Virus record (IMG/VR): IMGVR_UViG_3300035661_001697
Location: 2,537-66,536 of that record
Length of the DNA stretch: 64,000 nt
Reading direction: 5' to 3' (one strand)
From: a virus
The position numbers and the translations under genes were made by a program. Positions 3,595 through 48,763 of the stretch are shown here, piece by piece; within the stretch, counting starts at the first letter, position 1, and each line of letters starts with the position of its first letter. The notes beneath the pieces are model-generated. The model was not told the DNA's origin. It searched no databases and saw only the letters and a list, made by a program, of their open reading frames with translations.

Positions 3595-4122
3595 ATGAAA
3601 GAATTATGTTTTAACAAGAAGGGAGTTAACCATAAACCCCTCCAATATTGGACAACTGATAATGATACCAAAGTCGCCATTTATCAAGGAAATCGTGGGG
3701 AGAATCCTGACCTTGATTTTATTGTAAAGTACAAAGAGAAGGGTAAAAGATTACGTACACCTTCACATACCCATTGGATTGTTGATTTGTTGGTTAAGGC
3801 GGAATATAATAAAGTTTTAGTATCATCTTATATTGAAGATTTGATTGAGTTTTATGATAATACTAAACCATTTATTACAATCGAAGAAAGAAATAACTAT
3901 GAATTAGAGATTCTTGAGTTAATGGAAGATAAATACGGAAGATTAAATGGAAGTGGATATTATAGTATTAAAACTTTAACTTCTTTGGTAGAGTTGTTCT
4001 CAAAGTGTGAAAAACAATCTACAGGGGCGTTCATGTTTAAAAATCTACTCCAATTAGTAAAAGAATACTGTGATGGTAAAAAAGATTTTTATCAAATTAT
4101 TGGATATTCTAAAAGAGTTTAA
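3595..4122 (+). CDS. hypothetical protein
   Basis: 175-aa ORF tightly packed in the operon. Confidence 0.7.
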   Translation: MKELCFNKKGVNHKPLQYWTTDNDTKVAIYQGNRGENPDLDFIVKYKEKGKRLRTPSHTHWIVDLLVKAEYNKVLVSSYIEDLIEFYDNTKPFITIEERNNYELEILELMEDKYGRLNGSGYYSIKTLTSLVELFSKCEKQSTGAFMFKNLLQLVKEYCDGKKDFYQIIGYSKRV

Positions 4123-29694: not shown

Positions 29695-31092
29695 ATGAAA
29701 AATTTACTCAAAGAGACAGGATTACAAGACATTAACAATTTAGCTAAAAGATATCCAAAATCTGAAATATATTTTCATCAAGATTTGGATGGAGTGACAA
29801 CCGCAATTGCAATGAAAAAATACCTTGAAGACAATGGTATTGATGTGGTAGGGGCTCACATAATCCAATACGGTGACAAAGAATTCGCAGTTAAAAAGAA
29901 CGACGCACAGGGAGATGTGATGCCGGTTCTTGTGGACTTTGCTCACGGTAAGCCAATGTTTGTAATTCATACGGACCACCACGATAAACAAGTTGGGGTT
30001 GAAAAAAACACATCAACACAATTTAGAGGGGCTCGTTCAAATGTAGAAACAATATCTCAAGTAGTGTCTCCAAAAGACTTGTTTCCGTCTTCAGATATCT
30101 TATTAATTAATACTGTTGACTCAGCAGATTACGCTAAATATAATATCACACCTGATGAAGTTGTTAATTATATTTACCGTTTGGATAAAGAAAAACCACT
30201 CCAACAAAACAAAATGTTATTAGGATTGGTTATTAATAAATTGTTGTTAGCGTTTAAAAACAAACCAGGTTTTTTAGAAGGATTGGTTATGGATTCTGAA
30301 CCATCTTTAATGTCTATTTTAAATAACATTAAAAATTGGATGAAAAAAACAAATGCCGCAAATCCAGAAGAATTACAAAAAAATGCTGAGGGATATAAAG
30401 ATAATATGAAAAACTTTCCAAGAGTTAGTGATAGTATTATTTTTCAATATGGTGGTGGTAGTATGTTTAAACCTGGTTCTTATGATAGATACACACCATT
30501 TAGAAATAATCCTGACGCCGACTTTTTAATTATGGCTTGGCCTATGGGATTGGTTCAAGCTTCTTGTAACCCTTTTAAGAAAGACAGAGAACTTAAAGGT
30601 GTTAATCTTGGTGAAATAGCTCAAGAAGTATTATCAAAATGGGAGGGACAACTAAAACAAAGAACAATTCCTTTATCAACTATTAAATGGGTTAGTGAAA
30701 CTTCTGTAGGTCCTGAAAGTATTGGATTTACATTCAACGATTTTGAAGCACTATATGGCGATAAATTTACAACTATGGAAGGTGGTGAAAAAGTTTTAGA
30801 CCATATTCAAGATATGATGGAAACATCATTCAAAGATTTAACCGAAGAACATAAAGATATGTTAGATAAAATTGGAATCAACGCTTGGGATTTAATTCAA
30901 TCAAATTCAGGTGGACACAAATGTATTACAAACATTTCTGGTTTAAATTATTTAGGTAGAGGTAAAAGACCACCTCAAGGACAATATAAGTATGATTCTG
31001 AGAAAGATGATTCACCTTCAGTTAAGTTTACAAAGATGATTGCGAATGAGTTTGAAAGAAAACTTAAAGAAAAAATCGCAGAATCAAAGTAA
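29695..31092 (+). CDS. DHH-family phosphoesterase-like protein
   Basis: HQDLDG, VDFAH, TDHH, C-terminal GGH. Confidence 0.75.
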   Translation: MKNLLKETGLQDINNLAKRYPKSEIYFHQDLDGVTTAIAMKKYLEDNGIDVVGAHIIQYGDKEFAVKKNDAQGDVMPVLVDFAHGKPMFVIHTDHHDKQVGVEKNTSTQFRGARSNVETISQVVSPKDLFPSSDILLINTVDSADYAKYNITPDEVVNYIYRLDKEKPLQQNKMLLGLVINKLLLAFKNKPGFLEGLVMDSEPSLMSILNNIKNWMKKTNAANPEELQKNAEGYKDNMKNFPRVSDSIIFQYGGGSMFKPGSYDRYTPFRNNPDADFLIMAWPMGLVQASCNPFKKDRELKGVNLGEIAQEVLSKWEGQLKQRTIPLSTIKWVSETSVGPESIGFTFNDFEALYGDKFTTMEGGEKVLDHIQDMMETSFKDLTEEHKDMLDKIGINAWDLIQSNSGGHKCITNISGLNYLGRGKRPPQGQYKYDSEKDDSPSVKFTKMIANEFERKLKEKIAESK

Positions 31093-31431
31093 GTATTCAA
31101 CGGTATCACCTGGTTCAATATTCAAATATTCACAGGTTCCACCTTCAAGTTCCAAAACAATATTTCCGTTTCCACCATAACTAGGACATTTATTTCCACG
31201 ACACGGAGGACAATCATGGTGTATATTAACGATTACGTTATTACGGATAATGATAATGTCTAAGTTAATTATACAATTCTTCATCCAAAAAGATTGTTTG
31301 TCTCCACCGATTAAAAATAATAGACCGTCAAAAGTATTATCAAATGTTCTACCCATCATTCCAATAGATTGAGATTCTTTATCTACCAAAGTTTTAACAT
31401 TAAAAATATTGTCGTTGATTCTAACTTCCAT
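31084..31431 (-). CDS. DUF192 family protein
   Basis: GMMGR..GLLF..FWMKNC..LDII..PPC..Y..VLELEGG....I.PGD. Confidence 0.85.
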   Translation of the reverse strand: MEVRINDNIFNVKTLVDKESQSIGMMGRTFDNTFDGLLFLIGGDKQSFWMKNCIINLDIIIIRNNVIVNIHHDCPPCRGNKCPSYGGNGNIVLELEGGTCEYLNIEPGDTVEYLL

Positions 31432-31489
31432 ACATATAAATACAAATAATTGTGGAAGATATGTTAATTTGAACTTTTTTTGAAAAAAA

Positions 31490-31895
31490 TTTGACTTTTA
31501 TGTATAAATGTAGTACTTTTGAAATTGTTGGGCATATTTATAGTTTCCGTGAGAAATGACGGACATCCCCAAAACGTTTCACAATATATATTTGGCAAAA
31601 TGAGAATTTTGTTTTAACTTTGTGAAACAATTGAGATGAGAGTCTCGAAAAAAAAAATGTCCCATAGGCATTTGATTATTTGAAAAAATAATTTTATCTT
31701 TGTGGGACATTACTTTAAAAGTTCTTTAAACTAATATATTGTAGGGTAGAAGATTGGTGGTTCATATGTATAACTATAAGTCTGAGGTTCAAATTCTCCC
31801 TTTGTAAATAAAGAAAAAAAAAAGTTTAAAAAAGATTTGGAAAATTGAAAAAGTCTACTTATCTTTGTGAAACAATTAAGAAAACGTTCTTTGAA
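31490..31895 (+). promoter_or_regulatory. array of four tandem Bacteroidota promoters plus two boxA-like sites
   Basis: TTTG-N20-TAnnTTTG at 31490/31514, 31591/31615, 31671/31695, 31836/31860; GTTCTTTAAA at 31721 and GTTCTTTGAA at 31886. Confidence 0.75.
31740..31807 (+). pseudogene. degenerate tRNA (possibly Met-derived)
   Basis: TGTAGGG-TAGA..TTGGT D-arm remnant, GGTTCAAAT T-loop, CCCTTTGTAA acceptor remnant; anticodon arm eroded. Confidence 0.5.
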
Positions 31896-31900
31896 TTAAA

Positions 31901-32712
31901 GATATTGGGCGGTCTATAGTCCATAAAATAAACCATGAAAGTGGTATAAAGTGAATCATTTGGTTAAGTGGTTTGCGGCTTCCGAAAGGGAGCTCGAGTA
32001 GACAAGCGAGATATCGTTAGACCTTGAGTACCGAGGGTGACACTGTAGGGAAACTGGTTTAATGACCAAGCGATGTGGGTCGTTTGGTTGAGGTGGGAAC
32101 ACCAATAAGAATAACTCGTAGAATTATTGTAAGACACATGGTTATCCAACCATACTATTGCGTGATTCAATATTAGAGTAGGTTTAAAACCGAAAGGTAA
32201 GAAGTCGTACAGGTGGTGCTGGTGATTCCTTCTTAAAATTTCTACCAAGAAATTTAAGATGAAACAAACTTGAAATATGAAGATAGGGATATCTTAGGGA
32301 GTAGTTAAGTATCGTGTTGTTCAAAAAATGACATGGCTTGGTCGGCGAACCGCTACTTTCATCATCCACAACCGCAAACTTTGTTAATTAAGGTTTATAA
32401 ACAACTAAAAGACAAGGAAAAGCGTTCGCCAGTCGTGATTGACAGGTCACTACATAGTCATGAAATGTTCATGGCCGTAAAGGGTCCCAAACCCAATACG
32501 ATTGTTGTGAAAGTTCTCTAAGTTCGCAAGACATAATCAGGGTGGCAACCTTGAAGAGCAACGAGTAAAAACAGAGTAGATTACGACTTAAGGATTGGTT
32601 AATCTAATTGACCGTGACTGAGAGGTACTTTTCAAAAGAAAGTGGAAATCGGAGGAAAAAATAATCTCCTGTAAAGTCTCTCGTAAGAAGGTGTATTCTC
32701 AACCTGAAGCCA
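31901..32712 (+). ncRNA. large (~810 nt) structured non-coding RNA, GOLLD-like candidate
   Basis: GC-richer region without credible ORFs, many hairpins with GNRA loops (GCTTCC-GAAA-GGGAGC, ACC-GAAA-GGT, GCAA-capped hairpins), bounded by promoter/boxA and a terminator, next to a tRNA remnant. Confidence 0.75.
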
Positions 32713-32714
32713 AG

Positions 32715-32744
32715 AACCCCGACAAGAAATTGTTGGGGTTTTTT
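32715..32744 (+). terminator. intrinsic terminator of the ncRNA
   Basis: AACCCCGACAA-GAAA-TTGTTGGGGTT plus T-run. Confidence 0.8.
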
Positions 32745-32766
32745 GTTTTATCATATATTTATTAAT

Positions 32767-33333
32767 ATGAAAATAGTAATAACTGAACAACAATTCAAAA
32801 ACATATTTGAGAATAATTCAAAAGAACAACTGACAGAAAAATGTTGGAGCGGTTATAAGCAAAAAGGAATGAAGACAATGTTTGGTAAGCGATATCCAAA
32901 TTGTGTTAAGAATGAATCTGAAGAAACAAATGAGGCTTCAAGTCCAGCACAACAAGCAGCAATTGCCATCAATATGAAGAAGAAGGGTATTGCACCCAAA
33001 AATAAAACTTTACATGAAGATGAATATGGTTCAGTTGAGGAGACCAACTTTGTTGTTGGTGATTTATTAACCGAAGCTGAATATCAGGGAAGGAAAGTTC
33101 AGTTAGGTAAGATAATGCAAGGTGACATTAAAAAGTCCAAAGTATATGTTAAAAATGATAAAGGTAAGGTTGTTAAGGTAAACTTTGGTTTTGGTGGAAA
33201 ATCGGCCAAAGGTAAAATAATGAGGATTAAGAAGAATAATCCTGAAAGAAGAAAATCATTTAGAGCAAGACACAATTGTGATACTCCTGGTCCAAGATGG
33301 AAACCAAAATATTGGGCATGTCGAACATGGTAA
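32767..33333 (+). CDS. leader-bearing protein with modules seen in T4-like phage proteins
   Basis: MKIVITEQQF; CWSGY...PNCV; EAEYQGRKV...KVNFG...RARHNC...YWACRTW; modules separated by LTE/TNE/LHE. Confidence 0.75.
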   Translation: MKIVITEQQFKNIFENNSKEQLTEKCWSGYKQKGMKTMFGKRYPNCVKNESEETNEASSPAQQAAIAINMKKKGIAPKNKTLHEDEYGSVEETNFVVGDLLTEAEYQGRKVQLGKIMQGDIKKSKVYVKNDKGKVVKVNFGFGGKSAKGKIMRIKKNNPERRKSFRARHNCDTPGPRWKPKYWACRTW

Positions 33334-33337
33334 TGTT

Positions 33338-33366
33338 AATCCCTCACAGAAATGTGGGGGTTTTTT
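33338..33366 (+). terminator. intrinsic terminator
   Basis: AATCCCTCACA-GAAA-TGTGGGGGTT plus T-run; related copy at 40787-40814. Confidence 0.7.
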
Positions 33367-33435
33367 ATATTTAAACATTAAAATAATTTTTTAAATATAT
33401 ATTTTTTACTATCTTTGTATTCTAAATCAAAGGAT

Positions 33436-33717
33436 ATGAACATGGCATCACACAACATCAAGATTCAACACGAGACTTTTGGACTATTATTGAACGAGAC
33501 ATTTGTTAACAATACCCAATTCAAGTTATTCTTGAAGATGGTACAAGGATGTATTGAGTTAAAGAATGATTTGACATTTTTCAACGGAATGGATTTCCTT
33601 GTTCATATTCCTCACAAACACTTGGTGAGTTCAATTATTACAACTAACGTGGATGCTTATACATTGGCAGAGCATTTGGTTGCCAAATCTAAATTGGAGG
33701 CACTAGAAACAAAATGA
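33436..33717 (+). CDS. hypothetical protein
   Basis: ORF behind TATCTTTG (33410). Confidence 0.65.
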   Translation: MNMASHNIKIQHETFGLLLNETFVNNTQFKLFLKMVQGCIELKNDLTFFNGMDFLVHIPHKHLVSSIITTNVDAYTLAEHLVAKSKLEALETK

Positions 33718-33971
33718 GTTTATTAGTTAAATTAATAAAAATTGCAATTGGAGTTGGAGTAGTATATGCTGCATACAAGATTGGTGAAAGTGATGGTAAA
33801 AACAAAGAAAAAGACAATTTGGCTGAGGTTAAAACTGATTTGGATGTGGAAATTAATTTCATTGAGGGGTTAATTGAAGAATATCAGGTTATGCCAAATA
33901 AAACTCAGAAAGAGTGGGATAATAAACAAATGTTAGAAATTAAATTGGAGCAGTTAAAACGAAAGTTATGA
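33714..33971 (+). CDS. membrane-anchored hypothetical protein
   Basis: N-terminal TM, ATGA coupling. Confidence 0.6.
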   Translation: MSLLVKLIKIAIGVGVVYAAYKIGESDGKNKEKDNLAEVKTDLDVEINFIEGLIEEYQVMPNKTQKEWDNKQMLEIKLEQLKRKL

Positions 33972-34282
33972 TAACTATTGACGACATAAAGAAATGGGCA
34001 AAACCACACCCAAACACAAAGTTTAGTGGTGGTACTGGTAAACAAACTCGATTTGGTAACAACAAAGTTGAATTTTCTATTGTAGGCGGGGATACTAGAC
34101 TTTATGGTAATTTTGAGAATACTTTTGAGGTCGCAATTTTTGATGTTGAGTCAAGAGATTTTATTACCCGATTTTTTTATCCTGAAGCAAGTGATGATGT
34201 AATTGGGTGGATGTCGAGTGAAGAAGTTGAAAAACTAGTTAACTCGGTAATTAAAAGAGAAGACCTTAGTATTGAGGTATAG
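33968..34282 (+). CDS. hypothetical phage protein
   Basis: SIVGG..LYG....FEVA...DVIGW motif. Confidence 0.65.
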   Translation: MITIDDIKKWAKPHPNTKFSGGTGKQTRFGNNKVEFSIVGGDTRLYGNFENTFEVAIFDVESRDFITRFFYPEASDDVIGWMSSEEVEKLVNSVIKREDLSIEV

Positions 34283-34336
34283 TTTACTTGTTTAGAAAAA
34301 CAAGGTGGTGGAAGTCTGACATATCCTGTCGGTCCC

Positions 34337-45956: not shown

Positions 45957-47129
45957 TTAATTTGATAATTGCATTTTTATTGTCGGGTGACTTTGATAAT
46001 TCTCTAAAATAATATCATCCAAAGTATATTCCGAAATGTCATTAACAACACTATTAGATATTTTTACTGTTGGTAATTCATATGGTTCTCTTGTTAATTG
46101 TTCTTTAATTGGTTCAATGTGATTAAGATATAAATGAACGTCTCCTCCATTGTAAATCAATTCTTCAGGAACCATATTAACTTGTTTAGCAATCATCATC
46201 AATAATAATCCGTATGATGATAAATTGAAACTCAACCCCAATCCTACGTCGGTACTTCGCATATTAAACATTAAAGAGATTGCTCTGGTTGGTACCCCAT
46301 GAGTATCTAAATGAACATTAGGGTCAAATTGATTTTTTTGTTCTTCATTTGTAAATCCAAACTTGATATTCCATACTTGCAATCTTTCCTCTAAACTCAA
46401 CTCTCTTGTATAAACTTGAAATCCATAATGACAGGGTGGAAGAACCATTTGGTCTAATTCAGATGGGTTCCACGCTGACAAGAGTAGCCTGCGACTATCA
46501 GGATTTTCTTTGAGTTGTTTAATCAAATCCGATATTTGGTCTATGTTGTCGTTCCAACTTCTCCATTGCTTTCCATACACAGGTCCAAGGTCACCCCACT
46601 TCTTAGCAAACTCATCATCTGTTTTGATTTTGTTGATGAAGTCTTCTTGTGATAAGTGTCGGGTTGGGTGTGGAGATACCATAGAACGCCCATTCAACAT
46701 ACACCAACCTTTATCTCTATTTTGATAAAGAATATTTGTATGATGGTCGTGTATTGTTGCTAATGGATAATTTGTGTAGTTCTTATACGCATCTCCGTTC
46801 CAAATATGACAATTATTATCAACAAGGAACTTGATGTTTGTATCACCTCGTAAAAACCATAATAATTCAACTACCATAGTTTTCCATGCCATCTTCTTAG
46901 TTGTAAGTAATGGAAACCCCTCACTCATTTTATGTCTAATCTGTCTACCAAAAACACTGATGGTACCAGTTCCTGTTCTATCTTTTTTTGATACACCATT
47001 ATCAAGGATGTCTTGTAAGAGTGATTGGTATTGTTTATCCAAGGTATTATTTTTTATATCTATATCTTTCATTAGTTCTTTACGTTTTTCAGGATGTCTC
47101 CACTTGCCATAGTTAGACCATTTGTTCAT
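45957..47129 (-). CDS. thyA: thymidylate synthase (start 47129 or 47072)
   Basis: DRTGTGT, FPLLTTKK, ELLWFL, LGPVYGKQWR, SRR, LPPCH, RSTD..LG..FN, DVHLY. Confidence 0.95.
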   Translation of the reverse strand: MNKWSNYGKWRHPEKRKELMKDIDIKNNTLDKQYQSLLQDILDNGVSKKDRTGTGTISVFGRQIRHKMSEGFPLLTTKKMAWKTMVVELLWFLRGDTNIKFLVDNNCHIWNGDAYKNYTNYPLATIHDHHTNILYQNRDKGWCMLNGRSMVSPHPTRHLSQEDFINKIKTDDEFAKKWGDLGPVYGKQWRSWNDNIDQISDLIKQLKENPDSRRLLLSAWNPSELDQMVLPPCHYGFQVYTRELSLEERLQVWNIKFGFTNEEQKNQFDPNVHLDTHGVPTRAISLMFNMRSTDVGLGLSFNLSSYGLLLMMIAKQVNMVPEELIYNGGDVHLYLNHIEPIKEQLTREPYELPTVKISNSVVNDISEYTLDDIILENYQSHPTIKMQLSN

Positions 47130-47331
47130 AACTTTCCAATTGATTTTCGTTGAAGATGTGTAATAGTCCATATTCGTCCATTTCACCTATCACTCGGATT
47201 TCACCACCGATTGTTTCAAATACACCTACGATTGTGCAAGGAAATTTATAACCTTTTGGTTTGTGTGCCTTATCACCAACCTTAAATTTTGGTTCTGTTT
47301 TAAAAATATTGTTTGTTTTTTCTTGTGTCAT
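47113..47331 (-). CDS. type II dihydrofolate reductase (DfrB/R67)-like SH3-fold protein
   Basis: FKVGDKAHKPKGYKFPCTIVGVFET...GLLHIFNENQLE parallels R67 [23 protein letters not shown]...GSVQIYPVAALE. Confidence 0.55.
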   Translation of the reverse strand: MTQEKTNNIFKTEPKFKVGDKAHKPKGYKFPCTIVGVFETIGGEIRVIGEMDEYGLLHIFNENQLESYEQMV

Positions 47332-47576
47332 GATTCTAAGTTTAAATTATAATCATTTAATATATTTCTGATTTCATTACGTATTTTTTCTGCAACGGCA
47401 AACTCTTCGTCAGTTGCTTCTTTTGATTTATCAAGCATACTTGTTCCATGCTTTGTTGTGCCTCTAAGCAATTGGTCTAAGTCCCACATAGCTAACTTCC
47501 ATTTATATCCATCTAATGATACTCTTGCGTCATCTTGTTCTTCTACTGAGTCAAACTCTAATATTATTTTTCCCAT
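47328..47576 (-). CDS. hypothetical phage protein
   Basis: ILEFD...W..AMWDLDQ.LR motif. Confidence 0.65.
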   Translation of the reverse strand: MGKIILEFDSVEEQDDARVSLDGYKWKLAMWDLDQLLRGTTKHGTSMLDKSKEATDEEFAVAEKIRNEIRNILNDYNLNLES

Positions 47577-47578
47577 TT

Positions 47579-47821
47579 TTATTGTTCTTTAAATTTTTCA
47601 TATAACCATTCTTCATAAGTGGTGGCATCAGATATTTCATAGCATCCACACTCCATTGTTTTTTGTCCTGCTTTATATGCCTCTTTTGCTGATTGGTTTA
47701 ACGCCAAAAATATCTGTTTTTTTTCCATTTCTTTAGCCGCTTCAAGCATTGCATACCAAGTTACTTCATCCTTGTCTGTATTCCATAGCCTTTCAAATAA
47801 TAATTCTACCGCTGTTTTCAT
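47579..47821 (-). CDS. MK(Q)TAVE-family hypothetical phage protein
   Basis: MKTAVELL...AKEMEKKQI. Confidence 0.65.
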   Translation of the reverse strand: MKTAVELLFERLWNTDKDEVTWYAMLEAAKEMEKKQIFLALNQSAKEAYKAGQKTMECGCYEISDATTYEEWLYEKFKEQ

Positions 47822-47907
47822 TCTTCTGATTTAAAATCCTCGTTGACAATATGTCATTGCATTTATTTTTTCTTTTTGTAACCATAATAGGTATCTGAAT
47901 AGTTTTT

Positions 47908-48081
47908 TCATGGGCTCTCTATTGTGTAATTTTCGTATTGAAATATTAAATCTTTAAGTAATTTGTTTTCTTGAATAACTCCTTCACATTGTTTATTGTC
48001 CCTAAACATTGTTATACCTATAAAAATCCCAATAACAAATCCTATAAGTAACCCTATTACTAATTTATCTGTTGTTTTCAT
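47908..48081 (-). CDS. small membrane protein (57 aa)
   Basis: MKTTDKLVIGLLIGFVIGIFIG...; missing from the ORF track. Confidence 0.55.
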   Translation of the reverse strand: MKTTDKLVIGLLIGFVIGIFIGITMFRDNKQCEGVIQENKLLKDLIFQYENYTIESP

Positions 48082-48308
48082 TCTTCTAATTTATTTTTTA
48101 ATAATTCTGTTGCTCCATGCCATAATGGAGCCATATAATGATACACGTTTTCAATTATCTCTTCTTCTAAAAAAGTTTCAAGTTCTTTAATTCTTGCATC
48201 TTTCTTTTTTTCAATTTGTTTAGATTCTTCAATAATTTCTTTAATACCTAACATATTTTGGTTGTAATCTAAGCTATCTAATAAACACTCTACTGCTGTC
48301 TGTTTCAT
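48078..48308 (-). CDS. MKQTAVE-family hypothetical phage protein
   Basis: Paralog of 47579-47821. Confidence 0.6.
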   Translation of the reverse strand: MKQTAVECLLDSLDYNQNMLGIKEIIEESKQIEKKKDARIKELETFLEEEIIENVYHYMAPLWHGATELLKNKLEE

Positions 48309-48385
48309 ATCATTTTTATTTTATTAATTTGTCCCATATATTAGTTAGATTTGGGACGAATAGTTGTAAATTGCTAATATATTAG

Positions 48386-48763
48386 TTATATTCCTCTTGC
48401 TATCATGTTTAATATTTCTAATCTCTCTTCATCTGTTAGTTTTTTGGGTAGTTCATACTCTTTCGTATTCTCCAACCTACATTTCTCCACCTCTTCCCAC
48501 AAAGACTTATCATCATAACAAATTGCATTACCATCTTTGTCTGTTGCTTGGTATTGGTCACCATCTTTATCTCTCTCCCATAGATACCAATAAATCCAAT
48601 CTGCTCCTTCCTTACCATAGTAAACCTCTAATAAAATATTAATTACTGAGGTATAGTCATCTGAAAAATTAACAAGGTCTATTTCTAATTTATACAATGC
48701 ATCCTGCTTGTCTGACTGTTTCCTAATTTTATTAAGGATTTCTGTAAATACTTCTAATTTCAT
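48386..48763 (-). CDS. hypothetical protein
   Basis: 125-aa ORF. Confidence 0.65.
   Translation of the reverse strand: MKLEVFTEILNKIRKQSDKQDALYKLEIDLVNFSDDYTSVINILLEVYYGKEGADWIYWYLWERDKDGDQYQATDKDGNAICYDDKSLWEEVEKCRLENTKEYELPKKLTDEERLEILNMIARGI

Follow-up and report, generated by a model that had tools for sequence, protein, structure and literature searches.

Introduction

GOLLD RNAs are among the very few natural RNAs for which assembly into a closed, protein-free cage has been demonstrated. The cage of env-38, an 833-nucleotide (nt) GOLLD RNA from a marine metagenome located downstream of a Met-transfer RNA (tRNA), is a D7 14-mer of 380 Å, which is stable down to 12.5 nM (bioRxiv 2024.12.08.627333; cryo-electron microscopy (cryo-EM) structure 9MEE per PMC12990946; here and below both sources are cited from parts of their text). 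The 700-nt GOLLD RNA of Streptococcus agalactiae (Sag) forms a 12-mer in the cryo-EM structure 9L0R, a state tied to the loss of the elements P9, P11a-c and P21b (PMC12990946). Suggested cargoes of GOLLD are tRNAs, ribosomal particles and others (bioRxiv 2024.12.08.627333, PMC12990946). ROOL is, like GOLLD, a large ornate phage or prophage RNA that is often found near tRNAs and forms an RNA-only cage. Here we describe an RNA gene in a 64,000-nt stretch of viral DNA (the window), which is part of the 66,536-base pair (bp) IMG/VR virus record IMGVR_UViG_3300035661_001697. It is virtually certain, in our judgement, that the conspicuous coding gap of the window is a GOLLD RNA gene, and we are very nearly as confident that a complete GOLLD RNA gene carried by a large freshwater phage is the best explanation overall.

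Identity of the RNA

The gap lies between a DUF192 gene (31084-31431, minus strand) and an open reading frame (ORF) that begins at 32767 on the plus strand, and comprises about 1.3 kb without a conserved ORF. Within 31432-32742, the only ORF of at least 90 amino acids (aa) is a 94-aa antisense ORF (31964-32248), which is itself unconserved. A sequence-only reading of the window had placed an ornate non-coding RNA of about 810 nt at 31901-32744, in a long break in coding that is richer in guanine and cytosine (GC) than its surroundings. The coordinates are correct, the conserved RNA measures 799 nt (31907-32705), and GC content is 0.37-0.41 over 31850-32750 compared to 0.25-0.34 in the flanks. 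Among ORFs of at least 90 aa there is one other gap of similar size, at 47186-48386, and it is taken up by a run of short adjoining ORFs on the minus strand (47113-48308; 72, 82, 80, 57 and 76 aa).

The search that the sequence-only reading had proposed, Infernal cmscan against Rfam (release 15), gave a 318-bit match to GOLLD (RF02032) at plus-strand positions 32297-32705 (gathering score 150, expectation value (E) 3.1e-90). The match is not truncated, as it spans positions 1-416 of the 416 in the model, with a mean posterior accuracy of 0.98 and four non-standard pairs flagged, and GOLLD is the sole Rfam family above its gathering score in the 64-kb window. RF02032 describes the conserved 3′ domain only; the 390 nt upstream of it (31907-32296) were tested separately, as set out below. 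The size and layout are those of a GOLLD RNA, for which about 700-850 nt is typical (799 nt, composed of a 5′ domain of 390, a hairpin of 64, an A-rich linker of 70 and a 3′ core of 275). The context is that of a phage, an IMG/VR virus record with genes such as that for an endolysin; a tRNA neighbor, which is usual for GOLLD and not obligatory, is reduced to a 19.8-bit remnant. The features of the locus and of its most informative relatives are collected in Table 1.

Table 1. Features of the GOLLD locus in the window and in selected relatives.
Feature	Position	Strand	Details
Promoter-like site before tRNA remnant	31671-31702	+	TTTG, 20 nt, TAtcTTTG; position conserved in close relatives (alignment A3), ahead of their intact tRNA-Met; putative function
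Decayed tRNA	31740-31807	+	Rfam tRNA 19.8 bits, cut-off 29
Candidate promoter-like site of the GOLLD gene	31836-31867	+	TTTG, 20 nt, TAtcTTTG; consensus match only
Leader	31868-31906	+	39 nt, from promoter-like site to conserved RNA; nearly invariant in 7 close relatives, unalignable in distant ones
GOLLD 5′ domain	31907-32296	+	Starts with invariant GGGCGG; 21 helix segments; alignment A2, RNAalifold, pair counts with controls
Three-hairpin junction	31912-32003	+	5′ domain
Second junction	32006-32119	+	5′ domain
Long bulged hairpin	32121-32168	+	5′ domain
Junction enclosing three inner hairpins	32170-32278	+	5′ domain
Short hairpin	32280-32295	+	5′ domain
Long hairpin, CAAAA loop	32297-32360	+	First element of RF02032 (model 1-64); read as P13, tentatively numbered after part of the text of PMC12990946
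A-rich, poorly conserved linker	32361-32430	+	Unpaired model positions ~65-136; putative J13/15
Conserved GOLLD 3′ core	32431-32705	+	RF02032 alignment
Long-range helix	32431-32440 / 32579-32588	+	Within 3′ core
Hairpin read as P21a	32521-32533	+	Within 3′ core
Hairpin read as P21b	32537-32553	+	Within 3′ core
Intrinsic terminator	32712-32743	+	14-pair stem, 4-nt loop, T run
tRNA of relative L190	L190:5540-5613		Intact, 51.3 bits; GOLLD 96.7% identical to window
tRNA of relative L135			Divergent, 35.4 bits; anticodon TAT by manual register; GOLLD 99.9% identical to window
Locus L002, with GOLLD	LR745206.1 418929-422261		Full, flanked by tRNAs; record unannotated
Locus L003, with GOLLD	LR756502.1 432764-436092		Full, flanked by tRNAs; record unannotated

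Size and ornate structure, taken alone, would also be compatible with a large ribozyme or another giant RNA class (a group I or II intron, RNase P, transfer-messenger RNA (tmRNA), ROOL or OLE). When 31000-33200 was compared by permissive cmscan (E up to 1) with the full set of 4227 Rfam families, GOLLD was accompanied only by three chance-level matches (E 0.5-0.7) outside the RNA or at its edge, one of them the 19.8-bit tRNA-like match at 31740-31807. None of the classes named matched this region at E ≤ 1 or exceeded its gathering score anywhere in the window, in agreement with the earlier judgement that, by eye, the RNA does not look like RNase P or tmRNA; ROOL is unrelated to the window RNA in sequence and fold. 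An RNA of one of these classes in place of GOLLD is practically out of the question. The sequence-only reading had left the choice between a GOLLD-class RNA, which is correct, and a new giant structured RNA. Since the full RF02032 model is matched above the cut-off, the latter option falls: the window RNA adds no class and is a clean, full-length member of a known family. The earlier identification is right, and the high interest attached to it is not justified by novelty.

Four short ORFs overlap the RNA (94 aa, 31964-32248, antisense; 62 aa, 32333-32521; 61 aa; 49 aa), and the region could in principle encode one or more small proteins, such as the 94-aa or the 62-aa product, with the RNA structure being incidental. 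The region, however, encodes no conserved protein. At the aligned positions the four ORFs are intact in 4, 2, 7 and 6 of 40 relatives, respectively, all of them among the closest (at least 91% identity), and the distant relatives carry 1-8 stops or frame shifts. Moreover, substitutions track base-pairing and not codons, which makes a protein-coding explanation improbable in the extreme. The sequence-only reading had named conserved coding signal in these ORFs as the finding that would speak against an RNA; no such signal was found in them.

Structure and covariation

Relatives of the RNA were found by blastn against phage records, by scanning two short 5′-domain motifs through IMG/VR, and then with an nhmmer profile. 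The figures from the three IMG/VR scans of this work describe the matches listed, and the GOLLD family is larger than counted here. Run over 238 loci, the nhmmer profile gave at least 70 hit rows, at least 48 of them full length and at least 40 distinct; the distinct relatives are 787-846 nt long and 58.4-99.9% identical to the window. Near-full-length copies amount to at least 134 loci with at least 109 distinct sequences in at least 30 clades at 85% identity, a comparison set that includes genomes of 635 and 642 kb and provides deep covariation for the 5′ domain.

The 5′ domain and the hairpin read as P13 (31907-32362) were aligned in 40 sequences, the window and 39 distinct relatives (alignment A2). 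RNAalifold yielded a consensus structure of 125 pairs, 90 of which show changes on both sides that keep the pairing; because prediction and pair counting used one and the same alignment, these figures are somewhat flattering, but the margin over the controls is very large. Standard pairs occupy 98.6% of 4737 cells compared to 82.7 ± 0.3% in shuffles, and the covariation score is 0.550 compared to 0.230, with none of 500 shuffles reaching the observed value in either case. When partners are slid by 1-3 columns, pairing falls to 37.2-43.9% of cells. At least one compensatory pair is present in 22 of the 23 helices, and helices 22 and 23, which make up the hairpin at 32297-32360, carry compensatory changes in 15 of 22 pairs. 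The window sequence alone folds with a minimum free energy of −214 kcal/mol (z = −2.8; 0 of 20 shuffles fold equally well). The 5′ domain is thereby shown to have an elaborate structure, with covariation over about 40 phage contigs and, by HMM, over more than 100.

The stems picked out by eye in that reading coincide with the structure obtained here: GGCTT-CC-GAAA-GG-GAGCT at 31977-31994 (supported helices 4/5), ACCAAGCGAT / GTCGTTTGGT at 32065-32088 (supported helix 10), ATGG / CCAT at 32138-32153 (supported helix 14), ACC-GAAA-GGT at 32189-32198 (supported helix 17) and TCAGGGT-GGCA-ACCTTGA at 32540-32557, a hairpin of the Rfam GOLLD model.

A second sample, fetched independently with a 3′-domain motif alone, contained 86 further loci with at least 750 nt of upstream sequence, of which 85 carry a complete 5′ domain. 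The 5′ domain of the window is therefore of the usual GOLLD type and not exceptional.

Relation to the known cages

The layout of the window RNA appears to fit the published description of P1-P13, including P11a-c, as far as the published text allows. By the covariance model, env-38 and the window RNA belong to the same family; both have two domains joined by a variable linker, and they are of similar length (833 and 799 nt). According to our tentative mapping onto the partial published text, the invariant GAAA loop at L11a is shared as well, along with hairpins P9, P11a-c and P21a/b. The loop read as L11a (32192-32195) is invariant in 40/40 sequences. The loop read as L21a (32525-32529) displays GC in 30/40 and CG in 10/40 sequences, and a switch between these two self-complementary dinucleotides in L21a is used by Kretsch et al. 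as evidence for a symmetric kissing loop between chains (bioRxiv 2024.12.08.627333, in part). The position of env-38 downstream of a Met-tRNA is shared by many relatives of the window RNA, whereas the upstream tRNA of the window itself has decayed.

Sag GOLLD is of the same family and has the same 3′ domain (P14-P27) as the window RNA. It lacks P9, P11a-c and P21b and, in part, P7 and P10 (PMC12990946, in part), whereas the window RNA exceeds it by about 100 nt and apparently has all of them. Because the hairpins missing from the Sag 12-mer (P9, P11a-c and P21b as read here) appear to be present, a 14-mer would be more likely than a 12-mer for the window RNA.

In blastn, the uncultured phage genomes LR745206.1 (634,780 bp) and LR756502.1 (642,428 bp) match window positions 31901-32225 at 73% and 68% identity, and a GOLLD RNA (287 and 275 bits, respectively) with adjoining tRNAs is found directly downstream. 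Both RNAs align with that of the window over the full length at 59-61% identity and have the same 5′ domain; they differ in extra insertions in the hairpin read as P11c and in the intact tRNAs directly beside the RNA.

Expression signals and RNA libraries

Promoters of the Bacteroidota type follow the consensus TTTG ... TAnnTTTG. In the window, TTTG-N18-22-TAnnTTTG is matched 14 times compared to 5.4 ± 2.4 times in shuffles (0/100 reach 14), and four of the 14 matches fall within less than 380 nt on the plus strand, at 31490-31867. The last of them is the candidate promoter-like site of the GOLLD gene, both TTTG elements of which are invariant in 7/7 aligned close relatives (alignment A3). The first two, at 31490-31521 and 31591-31622, have no recognized product downstream, and a GAGA...TCTC hairpin followed by an A run is located at ~31634-31665. 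An extended motif, TAnnTTTGTGnnACA, was rejected as an enriched signal, with 6 matches in the window and 4.3 expected. In the close relatives L184 (~4000-4070) and L174, an insertion of about 60-90 nt flanked by repeated AAAGATATT separates the leader from GGGCGG. At the other end of the gene, the clean terminator noted by the sequence-only reading is present (Table 1).

Six metatranscriptome runs from six studies contain 75-87% of the sampled words of the gene. Four lake or freshwater metatranscriptome runs, picked, like all RNA runs used here, for containing the window sequence, were examined at the level of contigs, which match the window with zero differences over up to 528 nt (32088-32615, run X15) and 514 nt (32190-32703, run X17). 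Contigs of sequence variants are present in these runs as well. Loose contig ends in runs X15 and X16 resemble the L184/L174 insertion, and a variant bearing it is apparently represented in RNA libraries. Contig depth in the four runs is zero outside 31841-32757 (within 30400-34300). Uncovered parts of contig-only runs selected by the query are unusable as evidence, and this silence of the flanks is therefore counted neither for a discrete transcript nor against DNA carry-over. DNA runs with this sequence bear the labels freshwater, lake water, microbial mat and sediment. The window copy is a clean, complete example of GOLLD with a promoter-like site and a terminator of its own, and its phage lineage turns up repeatedly in metagenomes and metatranscriptomes of lakes.

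The adjoining tRNA

ARAGORN detects no tRNA in the 64-kb window, and an nhmmer profile of 53 tRNA-Met sequences has no match in it. The window does carry a tRNA remnant next to the intact GOLLD (Table 1). The remnant occupies the exact place of the tRNA in the closest relatives, behind the same conserved promoter-like site (alignment A3); at this site L190, L127 and L128 have an intact tRNA-Met(CAT). Aligned with the divergent tRNA of L135, the remnant has two gaps, of 3 and 1 nt, which fall in the anticodon arm and variable region.

This decay raises the question of whether the RNA is itself a decaying relic that has lost its function like its neighbor, whose score of 19.8 bits is far from the 50-57 bits of the intact copies in relatives. 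Five observations speak against a relic: (i) its 318 bits lie within the 275-338 bits of seven scanned relatives, (ii) the full RF02032 model is matched with just the four flagged pairs, (iii) its 5′ domain contains a single A-C mismatch in our reading of the mapped helices, (iv) it is 99.9% identical to the RNA of L135 and 96-97% identical to those of relatives that keep the tRNA, and (v) identical contigs are found in RNA libraries. A relic is thus very unlikely. The comparison set shows that GOLLD persists where the adjoining tRNA-Met has decayed.

The association of GOLLD with tRNAs depends on the sample. In the first sample, a tRNA-Met(CAT) is present 78-480 nt upstream on the same strand in 27 of the 37 evaluable loci (39 distinct relatives minus two in which the upstream sequence is shorter than 50 nt). 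In the second sample, which was collected independently, ARAGORN finds a tRNA within 600 nt upstream in only 10/62 distinct loci, all of them tRNA-Met, and the tRNA-Met profile recovers the same 10/62. A universal tRNA linkage of GOLLD is not compatible with the second figure and was rejected; with 10/62, the linkage is therefore specific to some GOLLD clades. The earlier remark that GOLLD RNAs often stand next to tRNAs thus holds for the relatives, to the extent given by the two samples, and does not hold for the window, which has the 19.8-bit remnant only.

Bacterial initiator tRNAs are classically recognized by a mismatched position 1:72. Among 20 distinct copies of the tRNA-Met, position 1:72 is C:A in 11, C:T in 5, T:T in 2 and T:A in 2, so that 18/20 are mismatched, and pairs 2-7 are all formed (6/6). 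The other tRNAs in loci with clear register are paired at 1:72 in 22/22 cases. In the second sample, 6 of the 10 tRNA-Met are mismatched and 4 weakly paired at this position. Judged by these sequences, a tRNA found directly upstream of GOLLD is almost always a tRNA-Met whose acceptor end is initiator-like. A literature search for texts that name both GOLLD and initiator tRNA returned only unrelated plant work. In one relative, L236 (2180-8171), at least 21 tRNA genes form an island with GOLLD at its end, and a tmRNA gene (86.8 bits) comes next; L002 displays a weak tmRNA-like match (22.8 bits) ~500 nt upstream.

Such arrangements could mean that a genuine GOLLD acts in cis, being co-transcribed with neighboring tRNAs and controlling their maturation or storage, and is not a free-standing cage. 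The 27/37 relatives of the first sample with a same-strand tRNA-Met and the 21 tRNAs and tmRNA around GOLLD in L236 point in this direction, as does the 'inhibited storage' idea cited in PMC12990946 (in part) for tRNAs embedded in J13/15 of Mycolicibacterium GOLLD. The window lineage, however, keeps GOLLD intact while the tRNA has decayed, one conserved promoter-like site precedes the tRNA and another precedes GOLLD, neither ARAGORN nor Rfam finds a tRNA embedded in the window linker (32361-32430), and 52/62 loci of the second sample have no tRNA within 600 nt upstream. We consider action in cis improbable.

Proposed assembly and function

We favor a model in which the complete GOLLD gene of the window acts as a free-standing unit. 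A transcript of ~800-875 nt would be made from its own Bacteroidota-type promoter during infection and would fold so that a flexible A-rich linker joins a 5′ 'cap' domain to a 3′ 'ring' domain. As env-38 does, the RNA would then assemble without protein into a closed homo-oligomeric cage; by analogy, the window RNA probably forms such a cage. Our best guess is that the cage may hold or sequester translation components (tRNA or ribosomal particles) during phage takeover, a translation-linked role that we put forward as doubtful at best.

Several points weigh against this model. The oligomerization of the window RNA is extrapolated from another family member, env-38, which is marine whereas the window phage is freshwater, and the likeness of the two rests on a covariance model and partial published descriptions, not on direct alignment. 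The names of stems and loops (P9, P11a-c, P13, P21a/b, L11a, L21a) were mapped from text descriptions, without figures or supplementary alignments. The promoter at 31836-31867 is a match to a consensus only. The contigs from the RNA runs attest to presence in RNA libraries and not to ends, strand or level. Finally, the adjoining tRNA has decayed in the window and a tRNA is located upstream of GOLLD in only 10/62 sampled loci; models in which the function of GOLLD is linked to the tRNA are therefore weakened.

A more specific version of the translation-linked role would be the following. In one large lineage of freshwater jumbo and mega-phages, GOLLD and an initiator-type tRNA-Met might constitute a two-promoter module beside genes for a DHH-family phosphoesterase, a DUF192 protein and sometimes a NUDIX protein, and translation initiation might be the target of the cage, which could, for instance, store or sequester initiator tRNA or small ribosomal particles during takeover. 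The phage of the window would in that case be a naturally occurring 'tRNA-minus' variant, with a GOLLD that functions in the absence of its cis neighbor. We rate this scenario as unlikely, only slightly less so than action in cis. The initiator-like tRNA-Met that accompanies some members of the family, the decay of the tRNA in the window and the presence of GOLLD in the largest phage genomes on record are leads on GOLLD function, not answers.

The phage and its neighboring genes

CheckV rates the IMG/VR record as 23% complete, which implies a genome of roughly 290 kb. Recognizable genes of the window encode an SbcC-like nuclease subunit, thymidylate synthase, two DNA methyltransferases, a nucleotide-sugar epimerase and an endolysin. 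Among the matches listed, relatives of the RNA are carried by contigs of 262,603, 282,192, 385,333 and 483,262 bp, plus others of 208,617-321,139 bp. LR745206.1 and LR756502.1 presumably formed part of the 2020 huge-phage study. A jumbo phage, as proposed by the sequence-only reading, is plausible considering the implied ~290 kb and relatives of 200-480 kb and 635/642 kb; it is not proven. A literature search for texts naming both GOLLD and jumbo phage returned only work on a Vibrio phage satellite and on Staphylococcus phage, and none on huge-phage genomes. For the five genomes larger than 634 kb in that study (PMC7162821, Nature 2020, cited from part of the paper), the predicted hosts are Bacteroidetes; its main text does not contain the word GOLLD. 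The proposed Bacteroidota host receives only indirect support, from this prediction and from the enrichment of the promoter pattern.

Upstream of GOLLD, the gene for a 465-aa protein (29695-31092, plus strand) and the DUF192 gene are found in 48 and 47, respectively, of the 81 loci with enough upstream sequence. These loci represent only 10/24 GOLLD clades. Family-wide protein partners of GOLLD were thus rejected, and the arrangement looks like synteny within one phage lineage; no mechanism is therefore built on the neighboring genes. The 465-aa protein matches Pfam DHH below the cut-off (21.9 compared to 28.1 bits), and eight aligned homologues have in common the invariant residues H28, D30, D32, D81, D94-H95-H96, D142 and G406-G407-H408, which we take to be DHH/DHHA1 motifs. 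A profile built from these eight sequences matched no protein of solved structure convincingly (best E 0.22, for a rhodanese-like protein), and the protein has no NCBIfam match.

No NUDIX gene or remnant of one was found in the window. A cluster of '136-aa' ORFs proved to be a mixture of real NUDIX genes and antisense shadow ORFs of DUF192, which makes its locus counts unusable. In some relatives a NUDIX gene is situated between DUF192 and GOLLD (L183:7078-7548, L247:6446-6865 and L194:5954-6361), and 3/3 tested hit PF00293.

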